A DNA stretch of 62,535 nt, the filler included, from Basidioascus undulatus (Eukaryota), in assembly GCA_000826855.1 (NCBI GenBank). It is 5 parts of 5 records of this genome, joined end to end, with 100 filler letters (N's around TTAATTAATTAA, not from the genome) between each part and the next. Parts side by side here need not be neighbours in the genome. Positions count along the whole stretch, not along the records: positions 50,147 to 62,535 come from JTLS01000912.1; 4 more parts are not named here. One strand, written 5' to 3'. Of this stretch, positions 14,050 through 62,535 are shown piece after piece. The notes under the pieces are model-generated. The model was not told the DNA's origin. It searched no databases and saw only the letters and a list, made by a program, of their open reading frames with translations. A program made the position numbers and the translations under genes. Every line of letters begins with the position of its first letter. The first letter of the stretch is position 1.

Positions 14050-14479
14050 TGTTCTCTTGCGCTGTCCGCCTCCTGCTTGTTATGGTCGGTGAGCTGCGCC
14101 AACGTCAAGGCAAGAGGCGGAGCAGGTAAAGGACTCCGTTTCACATCCGCTTACCCAACCGCATATGCGAAGTCCGTGGGATGCTCTCAAAAGAAGCACA
14201 GCCTGCGGACATACGTAATTATCAAAACGTAACGCAGTGAGTCGATACCGAGCTGCCCGCGACTGATGCTCAGATGCCATGCCCAGAGTGCCAAGGCTGG
14301 CAGCTTACCGCCGGCGGTACCTCTTACACCACTGCTCTAGGGAAAGCCAATCGGTTACAAATAGCTTTTACATTAAATAAGACATAGTACAGTCATGGCA
14401 ACACCAGTCCTAGCCAAGGCGAGCTGTAGAACGGTAGACGAAAGCTCTCGTCTACCCGTTCATTCCCACTTGCGACCTC

Positions 14480-15647
14480 ACCCCAGAGGCCGCCAGCATC
14501 TACGAGTCCGCCGTGCTGGAGCTTGAGGCCAAGAGTGAGCGAGCCCGGAACGGCGCCGACGGCCCTCGTACGACACCGCCCGCGTGGCTCTTGGTCGACC
14601 TCTTCCCCGGCGCACGGGCCACTACGCAGGTCATCGACGAAACATCGGCAGGTTGGGCGCCTAAAGTTTGCACGCAGCAGGGTGAGACGTACTTCCTGAA
14701 GGTGGTCAAGGGAAAGACCTGGGCGGATGACAATGGCGTCGCCATGGCACAGAGGGCCGCGTCGGTTGTGCCCGTTCCGCGCTTCGTGGCCCGCCGCAGT
14801 TGGGTGGACGCTGGGGAGCCATTTGAAGCGTTAGTCACTGAGTTCATCGAGGGGAGCACCTTGGAGGACGTCTGGGAAGACCTCAGCCCCAAGGCCAGGG
14901 AGGGGTACGTGACGCAGATCGTGGATCTTTTGGCCAAGCTCCACACGATAGTGAGCGACAAGTTGCTCCCCGGTGACGCCCAGACTGTGGAGGCCCTCGT
15001 GGCGCGCGACGGGGGGTATAGTGAGTATGCATCCATCGCCGCGTGGCTCCATGCGCTTGCTGCCTGCTATTCCGAGGAATCGGAACCCCTAGCCACCCTT
15101 GCCAGCGAGGCACTGTCCGCCACCATCGGTGAGCATCCCGTACGTCCTCTGCCACAATGACATAGAGCCCAGAAATGTCATGGTCAAGGACGGTGCGGTA
15201 GTCTCCATCATAGATTGGAACCTCGCGGGCTTCCAGCCCTTCCTCTTCGAGTGGACGGTAGTTGACACCGCGCTGGGACTCCACCGCACCAGCTACGAGT
15301 GGCACGTCATGTTTAAACAGGCAGCCGTGAGGCTCCTCCCACGCAGGGACCCGGTCGCGGAGCGGCTGCCCCTTCGCATCTTCAACGGACTCTGGAACAC
15401 CGTGTGGAAGAGGAGGAAGGTGGCCAAGTTCCCGCTGGACTTCATGGTCAAACACGGCGTCGTTGAGGGTGACTTATGGGGGCTTCCTACCGTTGCCGGA
15501 GCTCCAACTGCGTTGAAGGTACACTCCGGCCCTAGCCCACCTGTTACCCACCCGCAGACGCCGCCCAGCACTCGCCCTGGGATAGCGGTGGGCAGTTGCA
15601 CCTTTGGGTTAAAAAGTAGGCTATTCAAATCTTCTCCACGGTGCTAA
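14480..15647 (+). pseudogene. APH/choline-kinase-like phosphotransferase with a 1-nt frameshift at 15137-15139; start uncertain
   Basis: YFLKVV, VPVPRF, VTEFIEGSTL in one frame; LCHNDIEPRNVMV and IIDWNLAG in the next; removing one C restores HPYVLCHND. Confidence 0.7.
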
Positions 15648-20633: not shown

Positions 20634-21709
20634 ATGCCGACCTCCCTCCACGGTCCAACGCCCTCGCCTCCTCCTCCCTCCTCCTCCCAGGGCGGCTCCC
20701 CTCCTGCGTTCACACCCCCATCCATCGCCGGCGAGGGCACAACTTCAGCGGTCTCCTCGCCGAACAACCCTCTCCATCGCAGCAGCGGCCCCGCTTTCTA
20801 TGAGCCCCAGGTCGGCGGCAGCAACGCGCCGCCCGCTCTTCCTCCCTCGTCTGCTTCCTCTCTTCCCTTCTCTTCGAGCGCCTACGACTCGCCCCCCTCC
20901 CAAACGTACCCGCCCTCGTTCGGGCCGTACACAGGGTACCAGCCGCCGCAGCCTCACCCATGGCCCTACTCCTCCAGCAACGGGTCGTGGGCGGGCAACA
21001 GCGGCGCTGGCGGCGCCGGCGGCGGTCCCGCCGGTGCCAGGGCTGCGAGTAGCAGAACGGAGGACCACCAGCCGTCGGGGCTGGGTGGGGGGTACAGCTC
21101 ATACGCCACCGCCGGCAGCGACTATTCTTCGCACAAGCAGGCGCCCTCAACGAGCGTCGCGCCTGGCTCGCTGCTCGAGTCGCCGCTCAGCACGCCTGCG
21201 ACCGCGCGCCCTGACGCTTCCAACGACCTTTACCCCACCGCTCCGCGCCTGCGCGAGGGCGAGGCAGCACTCGGCGGGGGCCTGACGGGCGCTGGCAGCC
21301 CCGGCCCGTCTTCCCGTCCTCCCCTCGGCATCTCCCGCTCTGCGATGGGAGGCGAACGCCTGAACACCAACCCGTCCGAGCCGCACTCGGGGCCCATCCG
21401 GCACGTCGCCGCTTCGACCCAGCAACGCCGCGACGGGCGCTACCAGTACTCGACTGCGTCTCCCTCTTCCCTCGACCCATGACTCTTACTCCTCGACCGC
21501 TCGACCCTCAACCGCCTCGATCCCTTCGACCCCTCGATCCATCGGTCCCTTCTCTTCGAAGGCGGAAGCTGATGCCATTTTGTGGACGCGACCAGCCCCT
21601 CAGCAAGACCGGCCGCAGCGGGCCCGAGACGCCGAGCGAGGAGGCCGTGCGCGCCGACCAGGACGTCAAGTACCCCAAAGACGAGCCGAGCATCAAGTCG
21701 CGCTCGTAA
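20634..21709 (+). CDS. Pro/Ser/Gly-rich disordered hypothetical protein; probable last exon 21596-21709; N-terminus uncertain
   Basis: 282-aa ORF with coding-like codon bias, preceded by a CTGAC..CAG acceptor; downstream CAG-led exon PLSKTGR...IKSRS*. Confidence 0.55.
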
Positions 21710-22175: not shown

Positions 22176-23510
<1,335 letters not shown>

Positions 23511-26003: not shown

Positions 26004-29000
26004 TCAAGCCGCGACGCTGTACGAGACGTGGGCGTTGCTGCAGTAAGAAAAGTTAGCGTCCGATTGATGACTTCCGATTTACGGCCTAAGCGTGCACGCA
26101 CTAGTTGTACAGCACGGGGTTGCGCGTGTACGTGAAGCCCTCGGCGGTGTGCTGGAGCACGGTGTTGCCGTTGCGCGTGAGCGTCGCGCCCATGCCGCCC
26201 GCAGCGAGTGGCAGAGAGAGCTTGTTGACGCCGGCGGAGACGGGGAACGTCTGGCTCGTGCTGCCGCTCCAGATCGTTACGCTACCCGTCTGCTTGGCGA
26301 GCACGACCGCCCAGAGTTTGTCTTCCAGCTGAGGGCAAAAATGGGGTCAGACATGGCCCTGTAGATGTATGGCAAACATAAAGCGGCCGTACCCAGTTGT
26401 AGTCTCTGGGCTTGTCAACCCCGTCACCCGACGCGTTGGCGTCCTTCGGGTGAGGACGAGCCCACATGTAGATCTTGTCCTGCGCAATGACGGGCTGCGA
26501 ACCAGTACGGTACCACTGGATGTAGTAGGACGTGAGGTCGAGCCAGCCTGTACGAAACGGTGGATTTTGTCAGCCATGCAGCGTTCGGCGTAGACATGCG
26601 GCATCTGGCGTACCAAGGTGCGGGAACCCGTCGACCCATCCCTGGCTGTTGGGCTGCGCGCCAGCAATGGGGCCGATGTAGTGGCTCTCGCCATAGTCTA
26701 CAACAACGGAATACTTGCTTAGTTGCGAGACGACGCGAAGTGCAAGAAAGCAACGTGCCGTTCCACGTAGAGAGCTCCACCTCAGTGAACTGGTTCCGCA
26801 TCGCGATCAACTGCTCCCAGCGCGTGAGGTAGGTCCAGTTACTGCAATAACACATCAGTACGAACTGCGCGAAGGAGAACAGAGCGAACGGACTCCGTGT
26901 TGTAGATCCAGTTCTTGTTGTACGTCGACGGAGAGTAGTGACTAGAAGAAACAGTTAGTCGAGGTCTTCCTAGTGTTCAATGCCATTGTAATCTAATCGG
27001 AACATACTGCAAAGCGGAAAAGAGGCATTAGCGCGACGGAAACGAAGGTTGAGTCGGTCTACGTGGTAAAGGACGAACCGTGTAGAAGTGTGGCGACACG
27101 TTGGGCATGTACTGTTTCGAGCCAAGATTACTGATGTACGTCTGGTCCAAAGCCGTCGTGATGCTGGCGTCGCTCACTGTTGCGGCGCAAAGGGCTAGTC
27201 AGCACGACAAGTCTTACAGCAGCCAACGTTGCGGAGGAAAACTCACTGGGCCACGCGGAGTTCCAGTTGAACTGGCCGTCCGCGACGAGGTAGTTGCCGA
27301 AAGTCTGCGGGTCGATGAAGAACGCGGGGACGAAGTGAATCTGTCGATCAATAAAGGTTAGAAGGCTGGCATAACTTCCTAGAACCGAATGACTAACCGG
27401 GCGACCCGCGTTCGCGAGCTGATCCTTGACCTGCGATTGCCAGCCGGCCTGGACATTGCCCCGACCGAACGTGCAGTATTCACCCTGAAGCAAGAGATGT
27501 TGTGAGCCAGACACCGTCAGCTTGATGCGGGAAAGGTATCGAAGCATACCGAGAACGTCGACAGGAAGACCTTGCCGTTCTTGTAGTACTGCGCGGACGA
27601 GCTTGCGAACTCGGTCACGTATTGCCGGACGAGGTTGGCGTGCCACGCCGCGCTGCACGGCAAGCTGGTCATGTCGAGCGAGATGAAGCTGCACACGGTA
27701 TCGTTATGAAGTCAGTGCTCGCGGATGCGTTGAGCGGTTCCTCGACAGCACGCACAGCTTGAAGCCAACAGCCTCCGCAGCCTTGTAGGCGTCGCGAACG
27801 CGGTCGAAGCCCCAGTTATCGTTGCCGACGTTAAGCGCGAAGCCGGTGATGCCCGCGGCTTGCGCCATCTGGATGTCCCTCTGCCAGTCGCTCAGCTGGT
27901 ACGGGTAGGTCTGCCGAGAAGAAAAACATTCCAGCGAGCGTCCAGAACAAGAGGGGCAATGAATGGGGAGCGGCGCACGTTGCCAACCATGTGGTGCACG
28001 AAGACTGTCTTGCTCGAGTCTGCCGTCGGCGCAGGGACGGCCGTGGTCGACGTCGTCGTAGCACTGGTCGTAGTAGACGTGGAGATGGAGGAGGTGGACG
28101 AGGTGGACGAGGTAGTCGGGGTAGTCGAGGTAGTCGAGGTAGTCGAGGTAGTCGAGGTAGTCGAGGTTGTCGAGGTTGTCGAGGTTGTCGAAGTAGACGA
28201 GGTAGAGGAGGTGGACGAGGTTGAGGAGGACGCGGAACTGGTTTTACGAAAGCGGACCACGGTTTTGCTCAACAAATGGGAATGGCAAGGGGGCATGACG
28301 AGCAAAAAACTAAGCACGTGGTGGACGTAGACGTGCTCGCCGTGCTCGTAAGAGTGCTTGAGGTGCTAGAGGTGCTCGAGGTGCTGGTTGTTGTCGTCGG
28401 GACGAGCGTCGTCGTAACTAGCGAGGTCGAGGTGGAGCTCGAAATAGACATAGTAGACGTCGACGAAGTCGAGGCAAGAGAAGTGGGCACGGGCGTCGCA
28501 AGTGAACCTGGAGCATATAAAGCCAATCCAATGAACTCTCCCACTTCTGACTGACAGCGAGCGAAGAACGTACCAGCGACTCCGGCCCAGACGTTCAGGT
28601 TGTACGCAGTTGGGTTGGTAGTGTACGTGAAATCGCTCGGCTGGTAGTCGAGGATGATCTGCGAGTTGCGCACGAGCTGGATGCGGATCTTGCCTGCAGC
28701 TAGCGGGAACTCGAGCTTGCTAACGCCGGCAGAGACGCTGAACTGGTGCGAGCCGGCCGAGGAGGAGAGGATCGCAGTCGCCGCCGCGGTCGTGTGCACC
28801 TCGACCCAGAACTTGTTCTCGATCTGCGGTCAGGTAAGTCGGGATAAAAAGAGTGGTAAAAGGATGAGTTAATATGAGGACTACAGGACATACCGCGTCA
28901 TAACCGGTGGGTCTACCAACGCTGTCCCCGGACGCAGTCGAGCCGGCGGGCTGGGAGATGGAGTAGACCCAGACCTTGTCGGCGGTGATAGACGGGTACG

Positions 29001-30432
29001 TGCCGGTCTGGAACGCCTTGACGTAGTACGCAGTCAAGTCGAGCAAAGCTGGGACGGAAGAATGCGATAACAGTCAGCATTCGTCGCGTGGTGAGTAGGG
29101 AAGAAGCGGTGCTCACCGGTGTGCGGCTTCCCCGTAGTCCATGCCTGGGAGTTGGGCTGTGCTCCAGCTATCGCGCCAGCGTAGCTACTCTCGCCGTAGT
29201 CTGCATACGATTGAGAGTCAGCGAAGAACCTGGTCAATTGCAGGGAACGTAAAGACAAGGCTTGCCGTTCCATGTCACGATGTTGACCATCTCGAGCTTG
29301 CTGCGCTCGGCGACGAGCGCCTCCCAGCGGTTGACGTAGGCGTGGTTGTCCATGTCCGCGACGAGGTTCTTGTTGTACGTGCTCGGTGAGTAGTGCGCGA
29401 AGCGCCAGAGGCTGACGCCGGGCACCCACGACTTGCTCCCGAGGGAAGAGATCGTTGAGGCATCGTTGGCGCCCAGCGCGGCGCTCGAGGTCGGCCAAGC
29501 CGCGTAGTAGTCGTATACGCCATCGACGGGGAGGGAAGAGGCCTGGGAGGGCGTCATTCCGGGGATGAAGTAGATCTGCGTCCGACGATGCCCCATCAGT
29601 TTCGCTCCCAGGCTCCTAGGGTCAAGACGAGGATAAGACGTACCTGCACACCCTGCGCGCTGAGTCTGTTCCGGAAGAGCTGCCACCCGGCGGACGCGCT
29701 TCCTTGACCGAACGTGCACTGCGCGCCGCCCCAGGTGCTGACGACCGACTTGTCGTCCTTCTTGAACTGCGCCGGGTGGCCCGAGTAGTCCTTGACGAAC
29801 TTGACGATCGGGTCGAGGTTGGCCGCCGTCGTGCACGGCCAGGACTCCATGTTGAACGAGAGGAAGACCTTGGTCGGAGAGGAGGTCGACATCGACGTGT
29901 AGTACGCAGAGGCGACGCGGTAGGCCTGCCACCCATCCGTGGCGAAGTTGAGCGCGAAGGCATTACTGCAGAGGGGTCATGGATAAGACCAGAGCCGGTT
30001 TCGGGTGAGGAGGTAGTGAGAACGGACGCACATTCCCGCAGACGAAGCGAGCTTGAGGTCCGCGTTCCAGCCCTCCGAGTAGAGCGAGTCGTCGTAAGGG
30101 TAGGTGTTGCCGACGCTGAGATCAAATCCTCATGTCAGGATACAGATACACCGGCTGATCATAATGAAGCAAAGGAATACGGACATGTAGTGCGCGAGCA
30201 CCTGCTTGTCGGCTGCGCGCTTCCGGTACCCGCCGACGATGCGCAGGTCTTGCGGGACCCTCTCGGTCGTCTCCTCGCCCAGCGCACGGGGGTGGGCGTC
30301 GACCGACCGCACGCTATCAAGCGCGCCAGGCGCAGGAACCGGTACGGCGAGGACGGGGAGGTGGAAGGCGAGGACGAGGAGGAGGATGGCGAGCGGGACG
30401 GCCTGGGTGATGCGGGAGGACGAGTTGCCCAT
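26004..30432 (-). CDS. Secreted alpha-1,3-glucanase with two tandem GH71 modules joined by a Ser/Thr linker
   Basis: Hydrophobic signal and KR dibasic site; VLAHYIVGNTY / VFVHHMVGNTY, FALN, HYSPSTYNKN, TWNDYGES and FTYT.NP..YN each occur twice; multi-exon splicing keeps the frame to NAHVSYSVAA*. Confidence 0.92.
26942..27079 (-). other. Predicted [D1,2] stwintron (internal intron 27078-27007 nested in the donor of the external intron)
   Basis: ..TAC AC|G[GTTCGT..GCTAAT..GCAG]TATGT..CTAAC..TAG|T CAC TAC; of the splice models I tested, only two-step splicing restores FYTHYSPSTYNKN. Confidence 0.75.
28030..28480 (-). repeat. Coding Thr/Ser-rich low-complexity linker with 9-bp (GTAGTCGAG)n units
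   Basis: Encodes (TST)n between the GH71 modules; split by one intron. Confidence 0.85.
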
Positions 30433-31328: not shown

Positions 31329-34300
31329 CTAATAATCGCTCGAGGCGACATGATCAAACATCTCCATATCGACGCCCTCCATCCCGTCATACTCGACATC
31401 CGTCACCGGCTCCTTGAGGCCCTCGCGCTCCGCGTTCGCGCCGGGGCCGAGGCGCGTCTCCCACTGCATGGGTATGGAATCGGGGTCGGCGTCGGTGCTG
31501 TGTTGGGAGCTGAATGGGAGAAGAATTGTCAGAGTGGCACGCAAGGAAGTGGGGATAGGGGGAGGGCGGAACGCACGAGGAGAACCCGGACCGCTCTCCC
31601 TTCTTGCGCGGGCGCTTGTCCTCCTTCTCCTTGTCCTTCTTGTCCTTCTTCCCCTCCCGGGGCGCAGGCCGGGGCGTGGCTCGCCCACCCTCATTCTCAG
31701 ACGAGCCCACGTCGTATGTTGTGCGTGTCCGAGTGGGCGTGGGCGCGCGGGACAATGCGACCGACGAGGACGAGGGGAGCGTCAGGACGGGCTGCGAGCT
31801 CCACGCCGCCGCCGCGGCTGTTGCTGCCGCTGCGGTTGCTGCTGCGCGAGGGCGCGGGCGCGGACGTGGGCGTGGGCGGGCGGGCTGAGCGGAAGGGGGC
31901 GGGCGGTCCGCCGCGGGCGAGGAGGTGAGGTCGATTTGTTTAGATGTAGAAGATGACACGGAGGGGGATGCGGGCGGGTGGGCCGGTCGACGCGAAAGCG
32001 AGGACACGGGGGAGTCGTCGTCGACGATGTCGATCGTGCGTCCTTCTCCTCGCTTCGGGGTTTTCTGCTCAGGCGAAACGAGGACGACCACCTGCGTCGC
32101 AGGCTTCACGGGGCTCTCCACCTCGACGGCGGGGAGCCCAAGCATGGGCGGCGTCCACAGCTCCCGCTCGCTCCCGAACATGGCGTTCCCGTACACGCGC
32201 GAGTGCGCGCGCACCTCCTCCGCCTCGTCCAGGGAGAGCCCCCCGCGGTCCGCAGCGATCAGCCGCAGCGCCGCTTCGGGCACGAGCACGCGGCGGAGGA
32301 AGTCGTGTGGCGCGAGCGGGTGCGTGAGCGCGGGGGTGAGCGTCGTGTGCGCGGAGGGCGGGAGCGGGAAGAGGCGCGTGAGCGTGAAGGTTAGGACGAG
32401 GGTGCCCGTTTCGCCGTAGCTGGAGGTGCAGTGGGGTCAGCGTTAGCCCTTAGAATTCGGGCAAGGGCGCTGACGGCGACGCACTACCCGGGCTGTTCGT
32501 CCTCGAAGCTCTCCATCTGCGCGCCCACGCCCGCCGCGCGTCTCCCCCCAATCCGATCCACCTCGTCCCTCGCCTTCCTCCAGAACCTGCTCTCCTCCCT
32601 CCTCCCCTTATCCATCACGACCTCCTCCCACAGGGGTTCCCTGAGCGACTCGACCCTGGTCGCGAGCAAGTCCCAGTCGACCTCGCGCGGGTACCCGCGC
32701 GCGAGCGCGTCGGGTATGACCTCGGCGTCAACCTCGTGCGCCTTGCAGAGCTCCTGCTCCGCGAGGCAGTGCCCGCGCATGCCGTGCTTGTTCCCCGGGC
32801 GCGGGTCGGGCGTCGCGGTCCGCCTGAAGTCGCTGAGGAGCGCGGAGAGGTGCGGAGAGAGGAAGGAGGGCAGACGGACGTCGCAGACGGGGCAGAGCTT
32901 GTGCTTCTCGAACCGTGGTAGCGGCGGCTTGGTCGCTTCCTCCGCCGCGTACGACGGCCGCGGCAGCGCGGGGGCAGGCGGCGTCTTGTATCTGTCGCGC
33001 GAAATACAACCCGTCAGCTACTCGCGTGAAGCGAAGACGAGGAAAGCACGAACGCAAAATGATCAAACAGCGACGACTGCCGCTTTCCCGCCTTCTGCTT
33101 CTTCTCCGCCCGCTTCTGCGGCTTTGGCGTCTGCTCGTCCGACGAAGGCGGCGTCGCCATCCGCACGGGCTTGGCCTTGAGCGCCTCGCGCGCCTTGCGC
33201 ACCTGCGGGCTGTCCGGCGGAGAGCGCAGCGGTCGGCGCTTGGGAGTAGGCGCTGCGGGCGCTGTGGGCGCTGCGCCGGCGGGGCGGGGCCGCATGATGG
33301 GCAGGGCGTCGTCGGAGTCGGAACCGGAGCCAGAGTCGGCCGCCGAGGAGCGAGAGGGGATGGTGGGGCTTGCAGGGTGTTTGTCTTTGGCCTGTCGTCT
33401 GTCCACAACAGTGCGTGAGCGATGAAGCCGTGCAGTGAGTGGAGTAGAAGGGCAGAGGAAGAAAGACATAGTCCACGTACAGTGCTGGGACCCGGCCGAC
33501 ATGCTCGTCGAGGATGGCCGTAAAGATCGCCTTCGACGCCGCGGTGGTTTTGGACTTCTCGCCCGACTCCGACGACGAAGCAGGCGCGGAACCCGACTCG
33601 AGCTGCTTCTTCTTCTTCTTCTTCCCCTTCCCCTTCTCCTTCTCCTTCTCCCGCTCCTTCTCCTTCTTCCGCTCCTTCTCCTTCGCTTCGGCGCGCTCCT
33701 GCTTCTTCGCAGCCTTGTCGGCAGCTGTTCGAGAAGCCGAGGAAGCAGAGGGTCGGGACGCTTCGGCGTCCTTGGTTTTCGTTGGGGCTGGGAAGAAGGG
33801 AGAGGTCGACGGGCCGGGTTTAGGAGCGTTCATGGGGCGCGAGACGATTGTGGGCGCGAGTTTGTGTCGGGAGGGGTCGGTGCTTGTCGATGGCCTTCGG
33901 GCATGCAGAGCAGTCAGGCTTCCGAGTCGGGGAAGAACCAGATGAAGAAAGGGCGCACCGTCCTATCAAGTCCAGCTCATCCACGCTCTCCCTCCGGTCT
34001 TTCCCACCCCGCTCCTTCTCCCGCTCATCTCTCCGCCTCCGCTGCTCGCGCTCGCGCTTCCGGCGCTCAGCTGCCATGCGCTTCCTGAGCGCTTCCTCGT
34101 TCTCCCCCTCCCGCATCCCCGTCTCCACCTCCTCGTCCGAGTCCTCGTCCGAGCCTGGGACCGGCACGGCATGCGCTTTGCCCTTGCCCTTATCGCGCAG
34201 CGGCGGCGGGGGTTCGAGCGAGTCTGCGCGGACGCGTTGGCGCTTGCGCGGGGAGGAATGTCGTTCGCGGGAGGAGCGGTATGGGGACGGGGACGGGGAG

Positions 34301-37623: not shown

Positions 37624-39187
37624 GGATCACCGCGAACGGGGGGAAGATCTACGATGTGGTGCGTTCTCCCACTCTCCTTCCCCTTCCCACCACCTCCTTC
37701 TTGTACCCGGGATGTTGACCTGGAGAGGGGCGCGGGCAGACGAGCTTCCTCGCGGACCATCCTGGAGGGGACGACCTGATCCTGCAGTATGCAGGCAAGG
37801 ATGTCGACGAGGCGATGCGCGCCCGGGGGCCTGAGGCGGGCGGGCACGAGCACTCGGACTCGGCGTGGGCGATGCTGGACGAGTTTGTTGTGGGCCGGGT
37901 GGAGAACGGGGCGCGGACGATCAATGAGAGTACGTTGGTCTTCCTCGTTCCCGCTGTCCTCCCTCTCCCACTGTCCTCCCTCTCCCCTCCTCCGCTTTCT
38001 CTGCCTACTCCCCCTTTCACCCCTCCCACCCCCTGCCTCCTCCTCCGCTCTGTTTAAAGCGATACTGATACTGTGGGTATTGGACAGACTGGGAAGCGAC
38101 GGACGACTTCCACCCGGAGGACTCTGACCCGCACGCCGACTATCAAAAGTCGCAGTTCCTCGACCTGTCCAAGCCGCTCGTCCCCCAGATGTGGGAGGCC
38201 AACTTTTCCAAGAACTTCTACCTCGAGCAGGTGCACCAGCCGCGGCACCTCAAGGAGTCCGCGAGGCTCTTCGGGCCTTGGTACCTCGAGGTTCGTCTCC
38301 CATATCTCTTTTCCTTTGTTCTCATATCTAATTTTAATGGCCGGATCCTCCACAGATCTTCACCCGCACATCCTGGTACATGGTGCCGCTCGTCTGGCTG
38401 CCCATCACAGCGTACCTCTTCCGGCTGTCCGTCTCTCAGTTCCAAGCGGTGCACGGTTACCCGTCGGGGACGGCGCTCGCGCTGACGGGCGCCAACTTTG
38501 TGCTCGGCAACATTATCTGGACGCTGCTCGAGTACGGCATGCACCGCTTCCTCTTCCATCTCGACTACTACCTCCCCGACCGCCCCGTCGCGCTCCTCCT
38601 CCACTTCTTGCTCCACGGCATCCACCACTACCTCCCTATGGACCGGTGCGTTTTTCCTCTTTCCGAATTTGGACTCCGGAACTTCGAACACTGAAGCAAC
38701 CCTCTCTGCAGCCTCCGCCTCGTCATGCCCCCCCTCCTCTTCACCCTCCTCCAATACCCCTTCACCACGCTCGCGCACGTCCTCTTCCCCAAAGCGATGG
38801 CAAACGGCATCATCTCCGGTGCCTTTGCGTTCTGTGCGGCCCTTCTCCCTCTCCCTCTCCTGCGCTTTCACCCCCGGCTCTCTTTAATGAACAATTCACG
38901 CTTACACGTCGTCGCTCGCTCCCAGACGTCCTCTACGACGTGATGCACTACGCGCTGCACCACACGCGCTTGCCCGCGTACGTGCGCGAGCAGAAGGCGT
39001 ACCACCTCGCGCACCACTACAAGAATGTGCGTCTCTCCCCCTTCTCCTTTCCCTTCCTCCCCCCCCCTTTCTCCCAGCCCACCTCGTCTCGGGACTGATT
39101 TGCGTGAAAACGCAGTTCGACCTCGGCTACGGCGTGACGAGCAAGTTCTGGGATGTCGTGTTCAACACGGAGCTCAAGCTCAAGTAA
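37624..39187 (+). CDS. SCS7: Sphingolipid fatty-acid 2-hydroxylase (cytochrome b5 + hydroxylase domain); 5' truncated
   Basis: KIYDV..HPGG heme motif; YLEQVHQPRH, EYGMHRFLFH, HGIHHYLPMD, HYALHH, HLAHHYKN, GYGVTSKFWD. Confidence 0.95.
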
Positions 39188-52894: not shown

Positions 52895-53330
52895 ATGCCC
52901 TGCGCCAACTGTTTGAAACTGCCGCCGGTGGGAGCCCCTGATTTTACGATATACGGGCGGTGCAGGCAAGGTAGGCCTTCCGCACCTCTACCCCTTCCCC
53001 GCAAAAAACATCAAACATTTCTTATAGCTCTATTACTTCTGTGGTCCACTCAAAGCCGCGTACTGTTCTATCGAGTGTCAGCGCGCAGACTGGCCGACGC
53101 ATAAGGCCGCTTGCAAACGCAGCGCGGCCCTTCGCGCCGACCCCACGCTGTGCCAGGAGTGGCGCAGGGCTTCAACAGCACGGCGCTCCTCATCCTCTTT
53201 ACTGACAATGGTTTCTTGCCTGTGGCCCTTCCGCGTGAAGGGGGGAGATGCTCGGAAGAGGTTCCCCAGCGTGCCTCCCAGTGCGGCGGGGCATTGGAGG
53301 GAAGATCTGAAGGTCAGGCTGCGCGAGTGA
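52895..53330 (+). CDS. Small MYND zinc-finger protein, possibly degenerate
   Basis: CANC...YGRC + AYCSIECQRADWPTHKAAC after one GTAGGC..AAG intron; third Cys replaced by Tyr. Confidence 0.6.
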
Positions 53331-53720: not shown

Positions 53721-56632
53721 CTAAGCAGCCTGTAGAGCCCTCTCCGGCAATCCCAAGTCACGGCAGATCGAAGCCATGCGCTCCCGCTCGCGGTCGGACG
53801 TGTTATCCCCAAACGCCGCATCCATCTCCTCGAGGGTCTGGATTGTAATTGCGTCCCTCAGATTACATCTTCTATAATAGCGTGTATTCGAAGTCCACTC
53901 ACAACGCCGCGGGTTTCGGGGATAAAGAAGACTGTGCCGCACGATCTGTCAGTCCCTTCTCTCGTTACTCTACGAGTGAATGGAACCCTAGACGTACATG
54001 TGGTGAGGAATCCTAGGACCGCGAATGCGGCAAAGAAGTAGTAAGTTCCCCCACTTTCGAGATTTTCAAGCATCAGGGGCGACACAAGGCCAATGACGCT
54101 GCACGACACGAAGGTTGAGCTGCAACATTGGCGTTGGAGAGGAAGGCCTAGACTCACAAGTTTGCCATCCATGTGCACGAGGTCGTGATCGAGATTGCTG
54201 TTGAGCGAAGGGCGAGTGGGAAAATTTCGCTGGGCAAGACTGAACACAACGTGAAGGTCAGGTAGGCTATGCTTAATTGTAACCGAGCAAGGCCGTGAAA
54301 ATGTGCTCACCCCATCCGATTGGTGCCCAGGAGTACGAGAAGTTAACGTCGTAGATGTAGACAAACGCTATCACAGAGAAGCAGGGGTTAGTACGTGGTT
54401 GTGTTCTCGTAATTCTTCGAGCGGGTTAATCTATCTACCAATTGCAACGCGACCGGCAACGGCGTGGGCGGGCCAGTTGTCCCCGTAAGCAGCAATGAGC
54501 GAGCCGACGATGATGAGTGAGATGAAGCACCCAACAGCGCCGCTCATCAGCAGTGGCCTGCGGCCGACGGTGTCGAGCCAGATGACTGCGGGAAGAGTGA
54601 AGACGCTGTTGACAATGCCGTACACCCCGGTCGCGAGCAGACTCGTCGTGTTGGGATCCTGATGTATTGGGCGCGTTATGAACAAGTCCAACAAAATCCA
54701 TAAAAACGACCAGGAAGGGGTGATTTACCAAGCCGAGCTGCCCGAAGACTGTGGAGTACTCAGCAACGCAAGAAAACGAATATGCACTGCAACTTACTGG
54801 TTGGAGCGTAGTAGATGATAGCGTTACTGCAGTGGGGTTTTGAGTTTTATATCTCTGGAGAGTGTATCATAGACTCACCACCCGATGAACTGTTGGTAGA
54901 ACATGACGAGGCAACCTACGGCGAGACGCTTGAACTTGGGCCACGTTGATACGAGCGCAATGTAAGGCTGCATGGCGCGACGGAAACCGCCAAGGCCTTC
55001 GTACTGGATTACGCGGGTCTCGTGGGTGAAGTAAACCTCCGCCTTGACCTCGAGATATTCGAAGCGGACCGAGGACGCGTCGGCAGGCTTGCGCCGGAGC
55101 TGGGAGAGCACCGCGAGCGCCTCGTCCTCCCGGCCGACCTCGACAAGCCACCGCGGCGAGTAGGGCAGGAAAAACATTCCAATGCCCAGTACCTGATGGA
55201 AACGGCTTTAGTGCGAGACTATGCAAGAAGTGCGACGAAGGGGCTTACCAGGGCCGGGAACATCTGCAAGCCGACGGGGATGCGCCTGCGGAACTTGAGC
55301 GGTGTCAACACCGGGCTGCGTAACCTCATATCCAACTGCCGAGAGGTATTCCCACGTACCAGGAAGCAGGCGACTGAGCAGTGCAGCCACCGCTTGGCAC
55401 GTCGTTGTACGCATCGAAAGTAGGCCGACCGTTCAGCAGAGCACCCGTGTACGGCACCTCAGGAGCACAGCGGGTGCCGCCGATGTGAGAAGTGCCGTAA
55501 GCGATCCAATCTGAGTGGTCGCAGGAGTAGTGAGTAGCAGTTGAGACACGAATATCTTGAACTTACAGCTGAAGAGAATCTGTAGCCCGCCATCAAGCCC
55601 TCAGCCTGAGGACCGCAGTTGAAACCGGCTTTCTTGGCAAGGTTACTTACACCAAGTGTAATTGATAGTTGTTGAAGCGAAACTAGGGAACCGCGGATGT
55701 TGGGCGGAGAGATCTGCAAGCCAAGCACAGTCTTAATATGCACACGAAGACAACAAAGCGCAGTCTACTCACCTCAGCCAAATACATCGGCACGACGTGC
55801 GTAAGCGCTCCGACCGAGAGTCCAGCGACTGCTCGACCGCCGAACAAGAATCCTTTGAAGGAAAGAGCGTCAGCGTAGGCGGAGGAAAACGTTTACTGAG
55901 CCAATTTAACAAAGGACTGGCCTTGGGAGGTCGCGCCAGTCTGCAGAGCGCTGCCCAGCAAAAAGACTACGACGTTGCAGATAATGTTGTATTTGCGACC
56001 AATTTTGTCGCAGATGGGACCGTTGATCAAGGACCCCAACCAGGCGGCTTCATGGAATCAGATTTAGTGTTCGTACTCCAGAGGACTTGAAAGTGTGTTT
56101 ACCGAGCAAGAGGGTCGAGACGAACCATCCCTGTCCCAAAATGGTGAGTCTATATCATAGTTTTACAGCGTGAACATTTTTTCACTTACCTTGAGGGACG
56201 CATCCATATACACTTCCGGGAAGGACGCCCCAAAGGATTCAATAGCAAGAACGTTGCCCACCACCCCCTGCGGAACCTCCCCGTTAGCAGCTATCAGAGT
56301 TAGTTTGACCGCTAGAAGAGCCATATTACCTGATCGTATCCAAAGAGCTTTCTGACATAAATGTCAGCAAACACGGGACACTCACATAACCCAAAAAGAC
56401 CTTACGAAGCCACCAAGAGTTGCGAAAACGGTGACGCCCAGGCTTTTCCACCCAGCCTTTCTGTCAGCAATTGTATGAGCGGACCTCTTTATAAGAGTAC
56501 ATACACGAATGGGCTCTCGAAAAGTCCTCGTACTCCTGAAGAGCCTTCAACCGGCTCGAGGACATGATGGTGACCAATGTGCTTGACATCCTCTTTCGAG
56601 AAAGCACTCGGGGCGTCGTTTCCGAGAGACAT
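53721..56632 (-). CDS. MFS sugar-porter family transporter (multi-exon, complete)
   Basis: LGGFLFGYDQG, DKIGRK, VPMYLAEISPPNIRG, PYSPRW, QQFIGCNAIIYY, DTVGRRPLL, WAPIGWVLPSEIFP, IPETRGVTLEEMD in frame after splicing; one GC-AG intron (55921-55853). Confidence 0.93.
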
Positions 56633-56821
56633 GTGCGGTGACTCGACGATGTGTGCTAGTTTGTTAGGTACGACCCAAGATCAAGTGCGGGGGGAGGAGG
56701 ATAATGTGGGGGTTCAACCGGGTTGTTGGTCCTCATATATGCCTGCAGGGCGGTCTTCTCGAGGGGTGAGCGGAGACTGTCGGACCACGAACCTACGTTC
56801 CCCGCAAAAGCACGCTTCATG

Positions 56822-56838
56822 CGGACGACAGTGGCCCG
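56822..56838. promoter_or_regulatory. Gal4-type UAS 1 (CGGACGACAGTGGCCCG)
   Basis: Exact CGG-N11-CCG in the divergent promoter. Confidence 0.65.
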
Positions 56839-56929
56839 GAGGGTCTTCATGACCCTGTGGCACCCATCATGGTACGCTAAAAATATGTACTAAACGAGCA
56901 GGACTCGAGAAGCCTCATGAGCCAACTCT

Positions 56930-56946
56930 CGGACGACTGTCGTCCG
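56930..56946. promoter_or_regulatory. Gal4-type UAS 2, palindromic (CGGACGACTGTCGTCCG)
   Basis: CGG-N11-CCG with perfect 8-bp arms; 15/17 identical to the yeast consensus 17-mer CGGAGGACTGTCCTCCG. Confidence 0.75.
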
Positions 56947-57112
56947 CTGTCACGTTGATCCGGCTCTCCGGGCCGAGCATGGACATAACTCAGGGAGTGA
57001 AATGGCAAGAAATGGACATGCAATTTCTCACGTGGACGATGCAAAAAGCGTACCTTGGCCACGCCAAGCCCTGTGTTGACCAGCGATGTCAAGAAGCATG
57101 CATCGGTCGGGG

Positions 57113-57129
57113 CGGACCACAGGCGTCCG
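57113..57129. promoter_or_regulatory. Gal4-type UAS 3 (CGGACCACAGGCGTCCG)
   Basis: Exact CGG-N11-CCG with an inner sequence similar to sites 1 and 2. Confidence 0.65.
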
Positions 57130-57322
57130 TGTTCCGACTCGGCCTGTTCCCAGTGACCCCCACCGCCGCACATGTCCCTTTTCCGCTGCCAAAGCTTTGC
57201 AGCCTAACGCCTGAGAGACGTTGAGAAAGGTGAGTAGTCAGGCCTCCAACCAAGCCGTCGGCACTCTGCCCATTCACCATCCAAGCGGCTAGGCTCATTC
57301 ACACCTCCATCCACGCACAGTC

Positions 57323-58105
57323 ATGCCGCCCATTCACTGCGTTGCCGACATCGACAATCTCACCGAACATCTTCTATCATGCGCACACTCCCTGCCAGTC
57401 CATGTCGACAGCAGCTCCCCGCGGGCCCGCTACTGCGTTGCGCTCGCAGGCATACCGGGGTCCGGCAAGTCGTCGGTCGCGTCTGCGCTCGTTGCATCCG
57501 TCAATGCCCGAGCAGGATGCGAGTTCGCGATCGTCATCCCTATGGACGGATTCCACCGCACTCGTGCCTCCCTCGACGCCGATGAGGACCCAGTGTACTC
57601 GCACACCCGCCGAGGCGCGCCCTTTACTTTCGATCCGTCTCGACTACTCGACCTTGCGCGACGGGTACGCACGACCACCGGCCCGTTGACTGCGCCTTCG
57701 TTCTCCCATGCGCTCAGAGACCCGGTCGAGGACGATGTGCGGATTGACGCTCAGCACCGCGTGATCGTCTTCGAGGGCTCTTTTCTCCTTCTCGACGAGC
57801 AGCCTTGGGCGGATATCGCCCGCAGGATGGACGAGCGGTGGTTCCTGTCGGTGCCCCGTTCGACAGCGAGAGTGCGCGTAATGCGCAGGCATGTTCTCGC
57901 GGGGCTGGCTGGTACTCTGGAGGAGGCGGCATCGAAGGCGGATACAAACGACATGCTCAACGCTGAGCTCATCGAGAGTAGGATGGTTACTCCTGATCGA
58001 ATCTTGGTCGAGGAGGCCGAAAAGGACATCTCCGTGGCGTCGCTCTGTAAGCATTTTCCTGCGTGGTTTGACAGTATTTCTGACGATCTATTTTGGTTTC
58101 ATTGA
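57323..58105 (+). CDS. YFH7-like P-loop kinase (phosphoribulokinase/uridine kinase/pantothenate kinase superfamily)
   Basis: Walker A AGIPGSGKS, PMDGFH, RRGAPFTFD, DPVED, VIVFEG.FLLL; single ORF. Confidence 0.88.
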   Translation: MPPIHCVADIDNLTEHLLSCAHSLPVHVDSSSPRARYCVALAGIPGSGKSSVASALVASVNARAGCEFAIVIPMDGFHRTRASLDADEDPVYSHTRRGAPFTFDPSRLLDLARRVRTTTGPLTAPSFSHALRDPVEDDVRIDAQHRVIVFEGSFLLLDEQPWADIARRMDERWFLSVPRSTARVRVMRRHVLAGLAGTLEEAASKADTNDMLNAELIESRMVTPDRILVEEAEKDISVASLCKHFPAWFDSISDDLFWFH

Positions 58106-58629
58106 ATCCCAGAGATGAGGATCGAGGAAACTGTAGAAGTTGTTTTACATTTGGCCATAAACGTGCGAGATACCTATCGCTTGACTGTCCACTGTAAAGA
58201 AACAGACTCCTCAACTTTTGTCTATCAAACTCTATGATTCGAGAATGCTTGACAGTAGCATACTTGGATGTACTTGCAATATTGAATGCATGGGAATGTT
58301 CTCACAGGCACGTTATATACACCTCCGCATGCCTCGACAAACCTGCCACTGGCTTATATACTGTTGGCCGCGCGGATGGCACGCGGTATAGGAGCCATGG
58401 TTGCCTGTGCTTCATCCCAGAGCATTTTTCGGTGGTAATGTTATGGATCTCCTCTTGCGTTTTATCGAATGAATCACCGAGAAAGTCAATGTGTAGCACC
58501 GAAAGTCCCGCCAGGTTGACAGGCGCCTCTTGTCTTTATAGCATCATCTCACTCTGGCTTTACAAGCGACCTCAATCATCCAATCGTCGGAGCGTCCGCA
58601 AGAACGACCGTATACATCAGGTCCCCTGA

Positions 58630-61530
58630 ATGAGTGATTCGGAGAGGCCCTTGAAGAGAGCAAAGCCAAGGGAGGATGTGGCGGAGGAGGGTACAACCCG
58701 CGGACTGGGATTGGCGGTGAGTTCTCTCGCGCATTGCTAGTTGATATCTGGCTCACGAAAAACGCAGTGTGTCGAGTGTCGGCGCCGAAAGCTCAAGGTA
58801 TTGCATTCCGGGGGCTCCGGCCGCATCTGATGCCTCACTTACGGCGAACCCCGGGCATTTCCCAGTGTGAGCGGCAGCATCCCGTCTGTGCGCAATGTCA
58901 AGGGCGACGAGAATGCGTGTACGAGTCTATCAAACGCACCCCTCTCACGCGGAAGTACGTCTTGAGAGAGGTGACAAATTTATCATGTGCTGACCCTTGC
59001 TCATCTTCGTGTTTGTTCTACTAAGACACCTCTCGTACGTGGAAGACCGCGTCGAACGGCTCGAGGCGCTCGTCAGGCGTCTCAGCCCCTCGATCGATGT
59101 CGAGAAGGAACTCTCCCCTTCCGCTTCGAACATGAATGGTGCCTCCCGTAATCCCCTCTCAAACCAATGTTATATTCCTCATGTTTGTTGACCACGTACT
59201 CGAGCGCAGATCTCAACCGCACACCCGACACACCACGTCCTTCCGCCGCCGCACCCACACCGCGATCATCTGCCGATCCTCGTCCGCCCATAACTGGCTC
59301 GTCGTCAACGTCAGCGCTCCCAGAACAGCAGCCGAAAGACGCACGCGGCTATGAGTGGGACGAGCGCGGCGACGGGCTCAACCGGGGCTCTGACGGCATG
59401 GCGGCGCTCTCTCTTGAGCCTGACGGGAACGGTTACTTCGGTACGCCCTCTTAACATCCAATTATTTCAGCAGGCAGCACTGATCCCACCGTGCAGGATT
59501 CGCTTCGGGGGCTGCCCTTCTTCGAATTCTTCGAATATGTGCGGCCGATATCACGTTCCCAACGCCCATCTCCGCCTCATCTAGCCGTCCCTCCGACGTC
59601 TCTCTTGCTCTTCCCCCTGAACACCCGTCGCACACCGCGCCGACGGTTTCCGACATATCACGCTACATCGATGCGTACTTCAGGTTGTATCATCCTCAGT
59701 ATCCCCTGCGTTGGTTCTCTCTTCTGTTCCGTCCACTTCTTGACCTAACGCGGCTATCGCTTCAGTTCACGAGGCGACCTTCCGAGCTCAGTTTAGCGAA
59801 CTTATCGCCAGGCCCGATCATGGAGCGTGAGCAGACCGTTCGTTTCACGCTTCGGTTGTTGAGCGCCTAATCGCACCCCAACAGCTGGTCATTCCTCCTC
59901 AACGTCGTCCTCGCGCTGGGCGCTTTCTGTGCTGAGTCGGACGAGTCCACCATCTCGGACGGCTTTTACCGGAACGCTGTTTCACAGCTCGGCGTCGGCC
60001 AGATGGAGTCGGGCAGCCTCACGCTCGTCCAAGCGTTCACGCTGCTGAGCAACTACGTCCAGAAGCGCAACAAGCCGAACGCGGGGGCTGTTTACCTTGG
60101 TAAGTCGCGTTCCCTGATTGCGTGCGGACAACCATTGACGTCTGTACAACCTCGTTCCGATCAGGTATCGCTGTGCGCATGGCGATGGGGCTGGGTCTGC
60201 ACCGCGAGCTTCCGGGATGGCGCATATCTCCTTTCGAGCGCGAAGTTCGGTACGCAAAGTGCGCTCCATCTTGGTCAAGGAAACCTTGTTGACTGAAATA
60301 TGCTTCAGCCGACGTGTTTGGTGGGTGTTGTACATCTTTGATTCAGGCGCTACTATCACCTTCGGCAGACCGATGGTGCGTCTTACCTTTCGAGCATTGT
60401 TCCCTGCGCCGCTCGTGCCGCTGACCTTGACATCTTCCAGAGCTTGCCCGAGCACGGCGCAGATGTTCATCTCGTCTTGAATATTCCTGACCTAGTCAGT
60501 TGATTGAGAAACTCCCTCATTTGCGCGTCGTACCATCTTTCTGACGGCAGAGCGAAACCAGGCCCTCACCGCCGCTACCGCGTCCTCGCCGCCGCCTTCG
60601 GACGAGCCCACCATCTACTCGAGCCTCCTCATGCAGTCCTCGTTTCACACTCGCGGCAACCTTATCTACTCGCGCGTCATCTCCTCGCCCCCACCCTCGG
60701 CGTCCGAGACTCTTGACCTCGACGCGGAGCTCTCCGCTTGGAGGGCTCAACTGCCGGAATACTTTCAGGACCAGCAGTTACCTGCCAAACACGCTTGGCT
60801 CGAGTTCGCGAGGAAGAAGCTCTTCTGGAGATACAGCAACCTGCGGATCATCCTCTTCCGGAGGTTCTTCCTCGAGCGCGCCCTGTCGAGCGCGCCTCTT
60901 GTCATCAGCTCCGCCGACACTGCTCAGCATGCGGCTGCAGATGAGCGGTGCTGGACGCTCTGTCTCGCAGGCGCGCACGAGTCCATCGTATCAATCAGCG
61001 ACTACTTCAGGTCCCACAGCGCTTCCCGCCTGGAATGGTGGTACGGTCTGTACGCACTGTCTCATCGCGATCTGACATGCTCCACGTCGAGTGTTGACGT
61101 CTGACCTGCATAGACACTTCCTTTTCCAAGCGTGCTTCATCCCTCTCATCGCACTCCGCACGAATCTCTCTTCGACGTCTGCCGGCGCCTGGATGTCCGA
61201 AATCGACATGGCCAAGGGCGTTCTCCAGCTCGCCGAGGCTGCCAACCCACTCGCGGGGAAGTGCCTCGAGCTCGTTACGCGATTGACGACGCCGCCCGAG
61301 GCCCTCGTGGCGGACATCAATGTCGTTGCTCCCGCTTCGGACTTTTTCAGTAACCTTGATTCCTTGGATCTGAGCTTCTTGGGGGATGAACCCGCCCATT
61401 CTTTGTGAGTGTCGCAGTCACCGTCGCACCAAACGTCTCGCTGGCTGACTCTGGTCTGAACTCGTCAATCTCCAGCCTGCCGCTCGCAGATTTCGGTACC
61501 CTCGGTCAACTCTGGCAACCACATGCATAG
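58630..61530 (+). CDS. Gal4/Lac9-like Zn(II)2Cys6 transcription factor with fungal-specific middle homology region
   Basis: ACVECRRRKLKCERQHPVCAQCQGRRECVY, linker KRTPLTRKHLSYVEDRVERLE, DGMAAL..GYFG, YFRLYHPQYPLLHE, MAMGLGLHRE, RRRVWW, FGRP. Confidence 0.92.
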
Positions 61531-62239
61531 TTCTTCGTTGCTCTATTCAACTTGATGTCCATCGTTTAGAGTACTACCATGCCGCTAGTTTAGTACTGCT
61601 TGTTGTAAGGCACACTTTGTTTCTCTGTTAACAAGAGCAGTTTCGAATGGTCTCTCTGGTCAGTGCGGGCGAAAGACATGCCAACTGGCGTGTGCAGCTA
61701 ATCGAGTTGTGGCCAGCCAGCTCACGGTCTACTGTTCAAACACCTTGACGGCCCTGAACATCAGAGCTTGCGTTGATGACAGACTCGGCAGCCAGACTGC
61801 AACTCCAGACAGAAGACACAGCAGATGAGCGTGTATGCCGCCCAAAAGCGGCAAGATGATATGCACGAAGCGAAGCTTCGCAAAGAGCGCGGGTTGAGCC
61901 GCCGCGCCCGCCCGTCCGCCCTCCAAGCGACGCGGGTTGAAGCCGGTCTGTTCGGAGCGGACGTGTTGAGCGCCTAGTCTAGAGAAAGAGTTACAGATAG
62001 AAGAATGATACAGGATGGCAGGAGTAGTAGAAGTACAGCGGGGCCCCACCCCGAGGAGACACAGTGTTGAACGATGCGTGTGCGTGATGCGGTGGAATGG
62101 ATGCGTGAGATGGGATGCGTTGAGGCTCATGAGATGGCGTTAGGGGGTCTAGAGTTCGTTGAAGAATCTAGAGCTGAAGAGCAGAGGGAAACGGGAAGGG
62201 AAAATTGAAGGTCCAGGCGAGTGGACGCAGTCGGACAGA

Positions 62240-62535
62240 TCAGGTGGAGAGGACGAAGTGGGGGTGATCTGTGTGCACGATCTCCACGTCAGCCCAACGC
62301 GAAGGCGCCAAGGTAGTGAAGGAACGGAGCAAACTCACAGCACCCGAGCTTCTGGATTTCCTCGTCCGACTTGCCCTCCAACCGGTGGTCGCGCCTGCCC
62401 GCCGCGCGCTGGCGGTTCTCCCACGTGTTGTAGAGCGTGCACGCGAGCGCGTTGCAGAAGAGGAGCGAGACGGCCGCGAGGTTGACGCTGTTCCCGATGC
62501 GGTAGTTGGGGGCGTCGGTGGGAAGGTCTGAGGGG
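62240..62535 (-). CDS. C-terminus of an MFS anion:cation symporter (Dal5/Tna1-like permease); 5' part outside the window
   Basis: DAPNYRIGNSVNLAAV..WENRQRAAGRRDHRL..LGCYHPHFVLST* with one GTGAGT..CAG intron. Confidence 0.75.
   Translation of the reverse strand, partial: PQTFPPTPPTTASGTASTSRPSRSSSATRSRARSTTRGRTASARRAGATTGWRASRTRKSRSSGAVSLLRSFTTLAPSRWADVEIVHTDHPHFVLST

Follow-up and report, generated by a model that had tools for sequence, protein, structure and literature searches.

The window examined here is a 62,535-nucleotide stretch of DNA from Basidioascus undulatus that is GC-rich (GC 0.58) and intron-rich, features by which it reads as eukaryotic, fungal sequence. Towards its right end lies a compact locus in which a sugar porter gene on the minus strand (53721..56632) and the gene of a Yfh7/FrcK-type P-loop kinase on the plus strand (57323..58105) diverge from a common promoter of 690 bp (56633..57322), and in which the next gene, at 58630..61408 on the plus strand, encodes a multi-exon transcription factor of the Gal4 family with a Zn2Cys6 cluster. 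The promoter is read directly as the gap between the porter ATG at 56632 (-) and the kinase ATG at 57323 (+), in agreement with the ~690 bp of the original prediction, and its GC content is 0.574 as against 0.580 for the window. It contains three near-identical CGG-N11-CCG sites, one of them a perfect palindrome, whose likeness is not random. Taken together, these features plausibly describe a small sugar-response unit that a zinc-cluster factor would control in this basidiomycete.

All three sites were found where they had been predicted, at 56822, 56930 and 57113, and have similar interiors. Site 1, CGGACGACAGTGGCCCG (56822..56838), starts 190 bp from the porter ATG and site 3, CGGACCACAGGCGTCCG (57113..57129), ends 194 bp before the kinase ATG, the outer sites thus being near-symmetric with respect to the two genes. 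Site 2, CGGACGACTGTCGTCCG (56930..56946), is a perfect 17-bp palindrome. It differs at only 2 of 17 positions from CGGAGGACTGTCCTCCG, the Gal4 17-mer, a string present in papers as far as a literature listing goes, so that the 15/17 identity claimed earlier with the consensus of the yeast upstream activating sequence (UASg) is correct.

The number of sites in the promoter is higher than expected by chance, with an expectation in 690 bp of 0.27 from 20000 dinucleotide shuffles (at least three sites in 56 of them) and of 0.38 from the density of sites in the window (Poisson P = 0.0068); the earlier rough estimate of less than one chance site in a promoter of this size is therefore sound. The window as a whole shows no enrichment, since it contains 35 CGG-N11-CCG sites as compared with 31.7 ± 5.4 in shuffles. 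When 35 sites are placed randomly, some 690-bp stretch receives at least three of them in 82% of trials, and the window has two further clusters of three, at 21002-21610 and 38100-38447, where the underlying GC-rich stretches are taken to be coding. A significance of the three-site cluster by itself was therefore ruled out (P = 0.82 that a cluster of this kind occurs somewhere in the window). As evidence, clustering by itself counts for little, and it is the mutual likeness of the sites that is strong.

This likeness can be seen in the 595 pairs formed by the 35 sites, in which the top three interior matches (9, 9 and 8 of 11 positions) are exactly the three promoter pairs and all other pairs share at most 7 of 11. 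The site at 56930 has a palindrome score of 5/5 and the other two promoter sites are symmetric at 3 of 5 interior positions; outside the promoter, 29 of 32 sites have at most two symmetric interior positions, and the exceptions, with 3-4 (5954, 21002 and 21017), are GC-rich. With up to three mismatches allowed, the consensus CGGACSACWGTSGTCCG matches only these three sites in 62.5 kb, a count that is circular inasmuch as the consensus was drawn from them. CGGACSAC half-sites are concentrated here as well, with 5 of the 9 in the window lying inside this promoter. Furthermore, an unbiased repeat finder grouped the three sites as one family of exactly 17 nt with dissimilar flanks, which fits binding sites of a factor and not a duplicated segment. 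The three 17-mers are thus likely to behave like predicted binding sites of one factor. Scans of the promoter for sigma-70 promoters, terminators and tandem repeats returned nothing relevant.

Several other repeated or site-like elements were noted. An extra lone half-site, CGGACCAC, lies in the promoter at 56781..56788 on the plus strand and is without a CCG partner at N11 spacing, and a lone CGGACG-type half-site on the minus strand, part of an inverted-repeat pair, is found at 58591-58604, ~30 bp upstream of the factor ATG. Upstream of and across the kinase ATG, at 57246-57337, the decamers CCAWCCAAGC and GCYCATTCAC are interleaved in three copies with a period of ~30 nt, a region for which Tandem Repeats Finder reported nothing. 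Two overlapping CGG-N11-CCG sites at 38100-38131 have Gal4-like left halves (CGGACGAC and CGGAGGAC) and lie inside a 346-codon open frame (38058-39095), which is without a Pfam match and probably coding. A soil-metagenome run gave only near-identical matches of 151-244 nt to the locus, including a 219-nt contig near-identical to 56677-56895 that carries G>C at 56834 (position 13 of site 1) at a depth of 3.8; this substitution may be a sequencing error.

The factor gene begins with an ATG at 58630 (exon 1, 58630-58716), continues through small exons to exon 5, which starts at 59210, and ends with a stop codon at 61406-61408; its GT-AG introns are 51-71 nt long and split the DNA-binding domain. 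Exons 2 (58768-58797) and 3 (58866-58954) together encode a complete six-Cys binuclear cluster, C-X2-C-X6-C-X6-C-X2-C-X5-C, followed by VYESIKRTPLTRK, which splicing joins to HLSYVEDRVERLEALV at the start of exon 4 (59026..59138), where the linker ends and a putative Gal4-like dimerisation coil follows. The linker and coil peptide encoded across this intron, KRTPLTRK followed by HLSYVEDRVERLE, is identical to Gal4 at 15 of 21 positions. To this extent the linker closely mirrors that of Gal4, as had been proposed, although it is one residue shorter, as is the last zinc loop. The loop is X5 in the factor as opposed to X6 in Gal4 and in 12 of 15 family members, and 8 residues separate the last Cys from the P of PLTR as compared with 9 in Gal4. 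A linker of 8 residues is nevertheless found in 8 of the 12 family members that have both the cluster and PLTR, the other 4 having 9; these lengths were read by eye, and P0212 was placed in the 9-residue group, its CC doublet having misled an automatic pattern (which gave 9 and 3). The spacing of the half-sites is determined by the stretch that directly follows the zinc cluster, as Reece and Ptashne reportedly showed in 1993.

Searches with single exons also point to Gal4. At E <0.3 the PDB matches of exon 3 alone are Gal4 (three chain sets) and Lac9 only, and the sole PDB match of exon 4 alone is the Gal4 dimerisation domain 1hbw. The E-values of these matches are weak (0.06-0.4) because the queries are only 29 and 37 aa long. 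Other zinc-cluster structures, which are presumably in the PDB, were not among the matches of exons 3 and 4; that of Ppr1 (1pyi) was present in the searched set, since it was matched by P0212. Exon 4 alone matches the Pfam profile Gal4_dimer (PF03902) at 21.2 bits (E 3.2e-4, cut-off 22) over profile positions 4-33, positions 1-3 being encoded on the preceding exon, and the family members P0182, P0194, P0212, P0199 and P0179 pass this cut-off. Zn_clus matches the part-domain on exon 3 with an E of 0.041.

The family relationship extends through the rest of the protein. Three consecutive exons match positions 37-105, 118-150 and 151-173 of Fungal_trans (PF04082) at 11.1, 12.8 and 14.0 bits, scores that individually stay under the cut-off of 23, which all 13 homologues scanned pass, and the gene model is also supported by tblastn with the homologues P0121 and P0124. 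Of 1.84 billion representatives, only 196 match the region 60631-61063, towards the C-terminus, at E <=1e-3. In this library residues 421-561 of P0212 match the same region at E 9.3e-15; P0212 itself has a Gal4 DNA-binding domain match of 2.4e-27 and matches the Gal80-binding tail peptides of Gal4 and Lac9 (3bts_E and 3e1k_B), by which it qualifies as an authentic Gal4 orthologue. A complete zinc cluster is present in 15, and an [ST]PLTR linker in 17, of 30 long relatives among the best 150 of the 196. The spliced N-terminal 100 aa of the factor align with the eleven top-scoring members of the family at 45-57% identity and with E-values of 1e-16 to 1e-20. By homology, the factor is thus a Gal4-family member along its whole length. 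Its C-terminal exon (61076-61405) gave no PDB match at E <=10, and no Gal80-binding tail peptide was detected in it, whereas P0212 does match these peptides.

Among full-length relatives in the family the closest is P0174, whose linker after the zinc cluster differs (no PLTR) and which is only 31% identical to the N-terminal 100 aa of the factor, and more distant members retain the Gal4-type linker; this pattern suggests that the DNA-reading part has turned over within the factor family. The gene models P0121 and P0124 are truncated at the N-terminus, tiny exons of the DNA-binding domain having probably been missed.

The kinase is encoded by a single open reading frame (ORF) of 260 aa. Its best solved-structure match is 2ga8 (E 2.5e-30), deposited as a yeast 'hypothetical 39.9 kDa protein', which we take to be Yfh7 (YFR007W; PDB 2ga8/2gaa), and the two proteins have the same conserved motifs; unlike the window kinase, which is nearer the bacterial length, the yeast protein has 359 aa and thus ~100 extra residues. 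Further PDB matches are 3c8u (E 1.7e-19), whose label 'fructokinase' is a structural-genomics name, and type I pantothenate kinases at ~1e-5. The NCBIfam PRK09270 models ('nucleoside/nucleotide kinase family'), to which S. meliloti FrcK presumably also belongs, match at 4e-41 and below their cut-offs, the best being NF006743 with 140.3 bits as against a cut-off of 227; these models were built for bacteria. The 370 relatives at E <=1e-3 are headed by five Sporidiobolales proteins that are 49-56% identical, followed by ascomycetes, chytrids, plants ('putative uridine kinase C227.14') and bacteria. In an alignment of 16 fungal, plant and bacterial sequences, the kinase keeps all 22 invariant columns, P-loop included, among them G43, P45, G48 and K49; P73, D75, G76 and H78; G98, A99, P100 and F103; and E151 and G152. 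The protein can therefore be placed, by its sequence, in the Yfh7/FrcK family. Its C-terminal tail of ~25 aa (58025-58105) is common to none of the 15 aligned relatives and may be lineage-specific or reflect a missed 3' intron.

As had been claimed for yeast Yfh7, the literature searches made gave no assigned substrate for the Yfh7/FrcK family, YFH7 being met only as screen hits. C. neoformans Yfh701, for instance, was found in a screen for crossing of the blood-brain barrier (PMC7090016). A 451-aa gene model from Rhodotorula paludigena, P0008, joins a kinase homologue (57% identical) to a short-chain dehydrogenase (SDR), either as a real fusion or as two adjacent genes merged by the predictor. 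The structures that best match this dehydrogenase are the Rhodotorula 3-quinuclidinone reductase (E 3e-110), yeast carbonyl reductases and NADP-dependent mannitol dehydrogenases, and the fusion thus hints at a possible link to polyols or ketoses.

The porter belongs to the major facilitator superfamily (MFS; PF00083). Its gene runs from the ATG at 56632 to a stop codon at 53721-53723 and would encode ~580 aa in roughly 14 short exons. Pfam Sugar_tr matches the exons 54875-55177 and 54431-54694 at 37.4 and 41.7 bits (cut-off 22.3), and tblastn with the full-length relatives P0128 and P0157 tiles the gene from 56270 down to 53733 in 10-11 collinear pieces that are 45-100% identical, those collinear with P0128 spanning its residues 75-579. 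The best relatives in the database come from Agaricomycetes; they are named 'general substrate transporter / D-xylose-proton symporter' and share 60-66% identity over the query exon. The solved structures nearest to P0128 are STP10, GlcP and XylE. These matches assign the protein to the sugar porter family; its substrate cannot be read from sequence. The identities originally predicted for both divergent genes thus stand, with Pfam scores of 37-42 bits on two porter exons and the 2ga8 match of the kinase.

Evidence on the partnership of kinase and transporter came from bacterial neighbourhoods of the kinase family. A metagenome scan with the kinase returned 80 loci, all at most 41% identical and read as bacterial from their gene content. 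We chose the 46 with enough flank and dropped 8 apparent near-duplicates (judged by ORF layout, unaligned), which left 38 loci and, with up to four nearest ORFs taken per locus, 135 ORFs. Carbohydrate or ABC-transport (ATP-binding cassette) genes were among these neighbours in 24 of the 38 loci: 17 had clear carbohydrate genes and 7 more had only an ABC permease and/or ATPase directly upstream, while 14 had neither. Counted over all loci, such a permease and/or ATPase lies directly upstream of the kinase in 8 of 38. The carbohydrate neighbours include fructose-bisphosphatase (FBPase), FGGY, PfkB and ROK kinases, mannitol dehydrogenase, and SDR or zinc-dependent alcohol dehydrogenases with sugar-type ABC permeases; LacI, RpiR and DeoR regulators, glyceraldehyde-3-phosphate dehydrogenase with pyruvate kinase, class II aldolase, transketolase and gluconolactonase-like proteins were also present.

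Two of the loci, L014 and L035, have an MFS sugar porter (passing TIGR00879) 48-73 bp downstream of the kinase on the same strand, and their kinases pass the cut-off of NF006743 (262.6 for L014), the model that is also best for the fungal kinase. In a third, L045, the operon runs from a ROK regulator through an RbsB-like sugar-binding protein, a permease and an ATPase to the kinase. With this kinase, which is of Rhodobacterales type, as the query, a GTDB scan found the ATPase directly upstream in 35 of 73 loci with at least 2 kb of upstream sequence, and the permease too in 34 of these 35, in a set that is mostly Rhodobacterales, phylogenetically narrow and not independent of L045; PF02653 takes in permeases for amino acids as well, and only in L045 was the permease confirmed to be of the sugar type. 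The kinase family is thus recurrently partnered with sugar transporters of two unrelated architectures. This makes it unlikely that the fungal porter-kinase pair is accidental, and the bacterial context supports a transporter-kinase partnership, as far as comparative analysis goes, independently of the fungal locus.

With respect to known systems, the factor resembles Gal4 and Lac9 in its six-Cys cluster, its KR(S/T)PLTR linker and, with scores just or clearly below the Pfam cut-offs, in a putative Gal4-like coil and a putative Fungal_trans middle region, and resembles Gal4 further in a C-terminal region homologous to that of a true Gal4 orthologue. Unlike Gal4, it has a linker of 8 instead of 9 residues and a last zinc loop of X5 instead of X6, and lacks a detectable Gal80-binding tail peptide. 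GAL1 and GAL10 are arranged around a divergent promoter. The present locus likewise has candidate CGG-N11-CCG palindromes in a divergent promoter, with site 2 identical to the Gal4 17-mer at 15 of 17 positions; it differs from the GAL regulon in that it occurs in a basidiomycete, has the genes of a porter and of a kinase of the Yfh7 type as its members and showed no Leloir genes. In scans of ORFs of at least 150 aa in 1-44 kb and of at least 75 aa in 44-62.5 kb of the window, no Leloir-type domain (galactokinase, transferase or epimerase) was detected, in line with the absence of nearby Leloir genes reported at the outset, and short exons could escape such scans. The window likewise has no SDR or polyol dehydrogenase near the kinase.

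A second precedent is N. crassa CLR-2, whose closest yeast homologue is Gal4 and whose motif from chromatin immunoprecipitation sequencing, CGGN11CCG, is described as 'nearly identical' to that of Gal4 (PMC4620465). Its targets are cellulases and cellodextrin (MFS sugar) transporters and not GAL genes (PMC4620465, PMC13267753), and MtCLR-2 binds promoters containing the CGGN11CCG motif (PMC13267753). Reading of CGG-N11-CCG by Gal4 relatives outside budding yeasts is thus already known from CLR-2 (PMC4620465). Like CLR-2, the present factor is Gal4-related, occurs outside budding yeasts and has a sugar transporter as a candidate target, whereas CLR-2 controls dozens of cellulase genes and belongs to Pezizomycotina. 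Readers of the Gal4 type whose targets have been rewired are therefore known already, and a basidiomycete example with candidate sites would extend this group.

The third comparison is with bacterial frcBCAK-type operons, in which a P-loop kinase of the same family also lies directly beside a sugar transporter. S. meliloti frcK overlaps frcA in the fructose ABC-transporter operon, and a frcK mutant grows more poorly on fructose, mannitol and sorbitol and takes up ~50% less fructose; the authors call the FrcK substrate 'not readily apparent' and report P-loop and pantothenate-kinase domain matches (PMC10433430). The mutant phenotype, as described there, touches sugar uptake and not the main phosphorylation step (PMC10433430). 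The bacterial kinases are only 32-42% identical to the fungal one and are co-transcribed with an ABC (CUT2) transporter or, in L014 and L035, with an MFS porter, whereas the fungal pair is divergent and lies beside the gene of a eukaryotic activator.

From these observations we infer a model in which the Gal4-family factor would dimerise through its Gal4-like coil, bind to the three CGGAC(G/C)AC-type CGG-N11-CCG palindromes of the divergent promoter and, upon a carbohydrate signal, switch on the porter and the kinase in both directions. The most likely substrate of the kinase would then be a small metabolite, sugar-like or derived from a polyol, that is linked to what the porter imports; less likely, the kinase would tune transport itself. 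We put the full model, binding of the 17-mers by the neighbouring factor together with co-regulation of both genes, at about an even chance. A broader and more tentative version, which we consider possible but somewhat doubtful, holds that this basidiomycete kept the ancestral Gal4 code, both the Gal4-type linker and coil and the CGG-N11-CCG palindromes with their Gal4-like interiors, for a porter and a Yfh7/FrcK kinase, that the kinase-transporter pairing is a cross-kingdom module, and that the kinase either uses an imported sugar of the ketose or polyol type as its substrate or gates the uptake of that sugar.

The sites might be bound by the neighbouring factor with the porter as its only target, the kinase being a constitutive housekeeping gene that shares the intergenic space. 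The broad conservation of the Yfh7 family in fungi, plants and bacteria would suit such a general function, and in the Sporidiobolales relative the kinase has a different neighbour, the SDR fused to it by the gene model. Both the symmetric placement of the outer sites, 190 bp from one ATG and 194 bp from the other, and the repeated adjacency of bacterial relatives to sugar transporters of two unrelated types speak for shared control, and we regard a porter-only arrangement as unlikely. Another possibility is that the 17-mers are read by a different Zn2Cys6 factor encoded elsewhere, the neighbouring Gal4-family gene being there by coincidence and having other targets. Fungal genomes encode dozens of zinc-cluster factors (41 in S. 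commune; 10.1101/2021.06.08.446897), and the linker and last zinc loop of the neighbouring factor differ in length from those of Gal4, while its own upstream region has no full site. Its DNA-binding, linker and coil region is nevertheless of the Gal4 type, and the sites have the spacing of Gal4 and CLR-2 sites and a Gal4-like interior, which makes a distant reader improbable, somewhat more so than a porter-only target. Pathway-specific zinc-cluster factors are often encoded beside their targets. That the 17-mers have no regulatory role at all, as products of chance or as remnants of short repeats, is very unlikely: the motif is not enriched in the window, triplets of it occur elsewhere, and the soil-metagenome fragment with its possibly erroneous change in site 1 would sit well with such a view, but the top three of 595 interior similarities are exactly the promoter pairs, one site is a perfect palindrome, the likeness ends exactly at the 17-mer borders and the remaining 61.8 kb lack the consensus.

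Returning to the model of co-regulation by the neighbouring factor, several observations weigh against it or against its extension to sugar phosphorylation. The shorter linker and the X5 loop mean that an 11-bp spacing would not be guaranteed by homology alone, the closest C-terminal relatives (P0174 and P0121) are without a visible PLTR linker, and the region upstream of the factor gene contains no full CGG-N11-CCG site. Almost all fungi and plants have a member of the Yfh7 family, which suits housekeeping better than a niche catabolic role, and one fungal hint runs counter to a conserved trio, in that the gene model of R. paludigena has the kinase fused to an SDR and not beside a porter or factor. 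On the bacterial side, beyond the narrowness of the GTDB set, dedicated FGGY, PfkB or ROK sugar kinases often adjoin the relatives, and for this reason the role of the kinase may be accessory and not the main phosphorylation. In keeping with this, the fructokinase of S. meliloti is Frk and not FrcK (PMC10433430). The proposal of an uptake-plus-phosphorylation module accordingly stands only in part: the transporter-kinase pairing is echoed in bacterial relatives, but the phosphorylation half is weakened by S. meliloti, where Frk is the fructokinase and loss of frcK costs only about half of fructose uptake.

If the model is correct, the locus would matter in two ways. The Yfh7/FrcK family is conserved across bacteria, fungi and plants and has solved structures (2ga8 and 3c8u), with no substrate found in the literature searched; a compact locus in which such an orphan kinase and a sugar porter are on one promoter, with sites that fit the factor next door, would offer an experimental entry to the family, for which the bacterial neighbourhoods point to fructose, mannitol- or sorbitol-type polyols and related ketoses as first candidates. 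Were the cross-kingdom module real, it would give Yfh7 its first function. In addition, a Gal4-type DNA-reading module and its 17-bp site would have outlived the split between ascomycetes and basidiomycetes with their targets exchanged, which would extend the CLR-2 case known within ascomycetes.

The best database matches of the three genes come from different species, namely Sporidiobolales for the kinase, Agaricomycetes for the porter and R. pacifica for the factor. The affinity to Pucciniomycotina that had been assumed is thus hinted at by the kinase but not by the porter. Elsewhere in the window, domain matches were found to an APH-type phosphotransferase (14438-15644, +), a triosephosphate isomerase (22658-23434, -), two pieces of GH71, an alpha-1,3-glucanase family (27707-29962, -), and an RTC4-like domain (31390-32436, -). 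A MYND zinc finger (53028-53327, +) lies just left of the porter gene. To the right of the locus, an open frame on the minus strand (61700-62535), convergent with the factor gene and running off the right end of the window, has no Pfam match at E <=1 and gives the impression, though only that, of resembling the C-terminal part of another membrane transporter.

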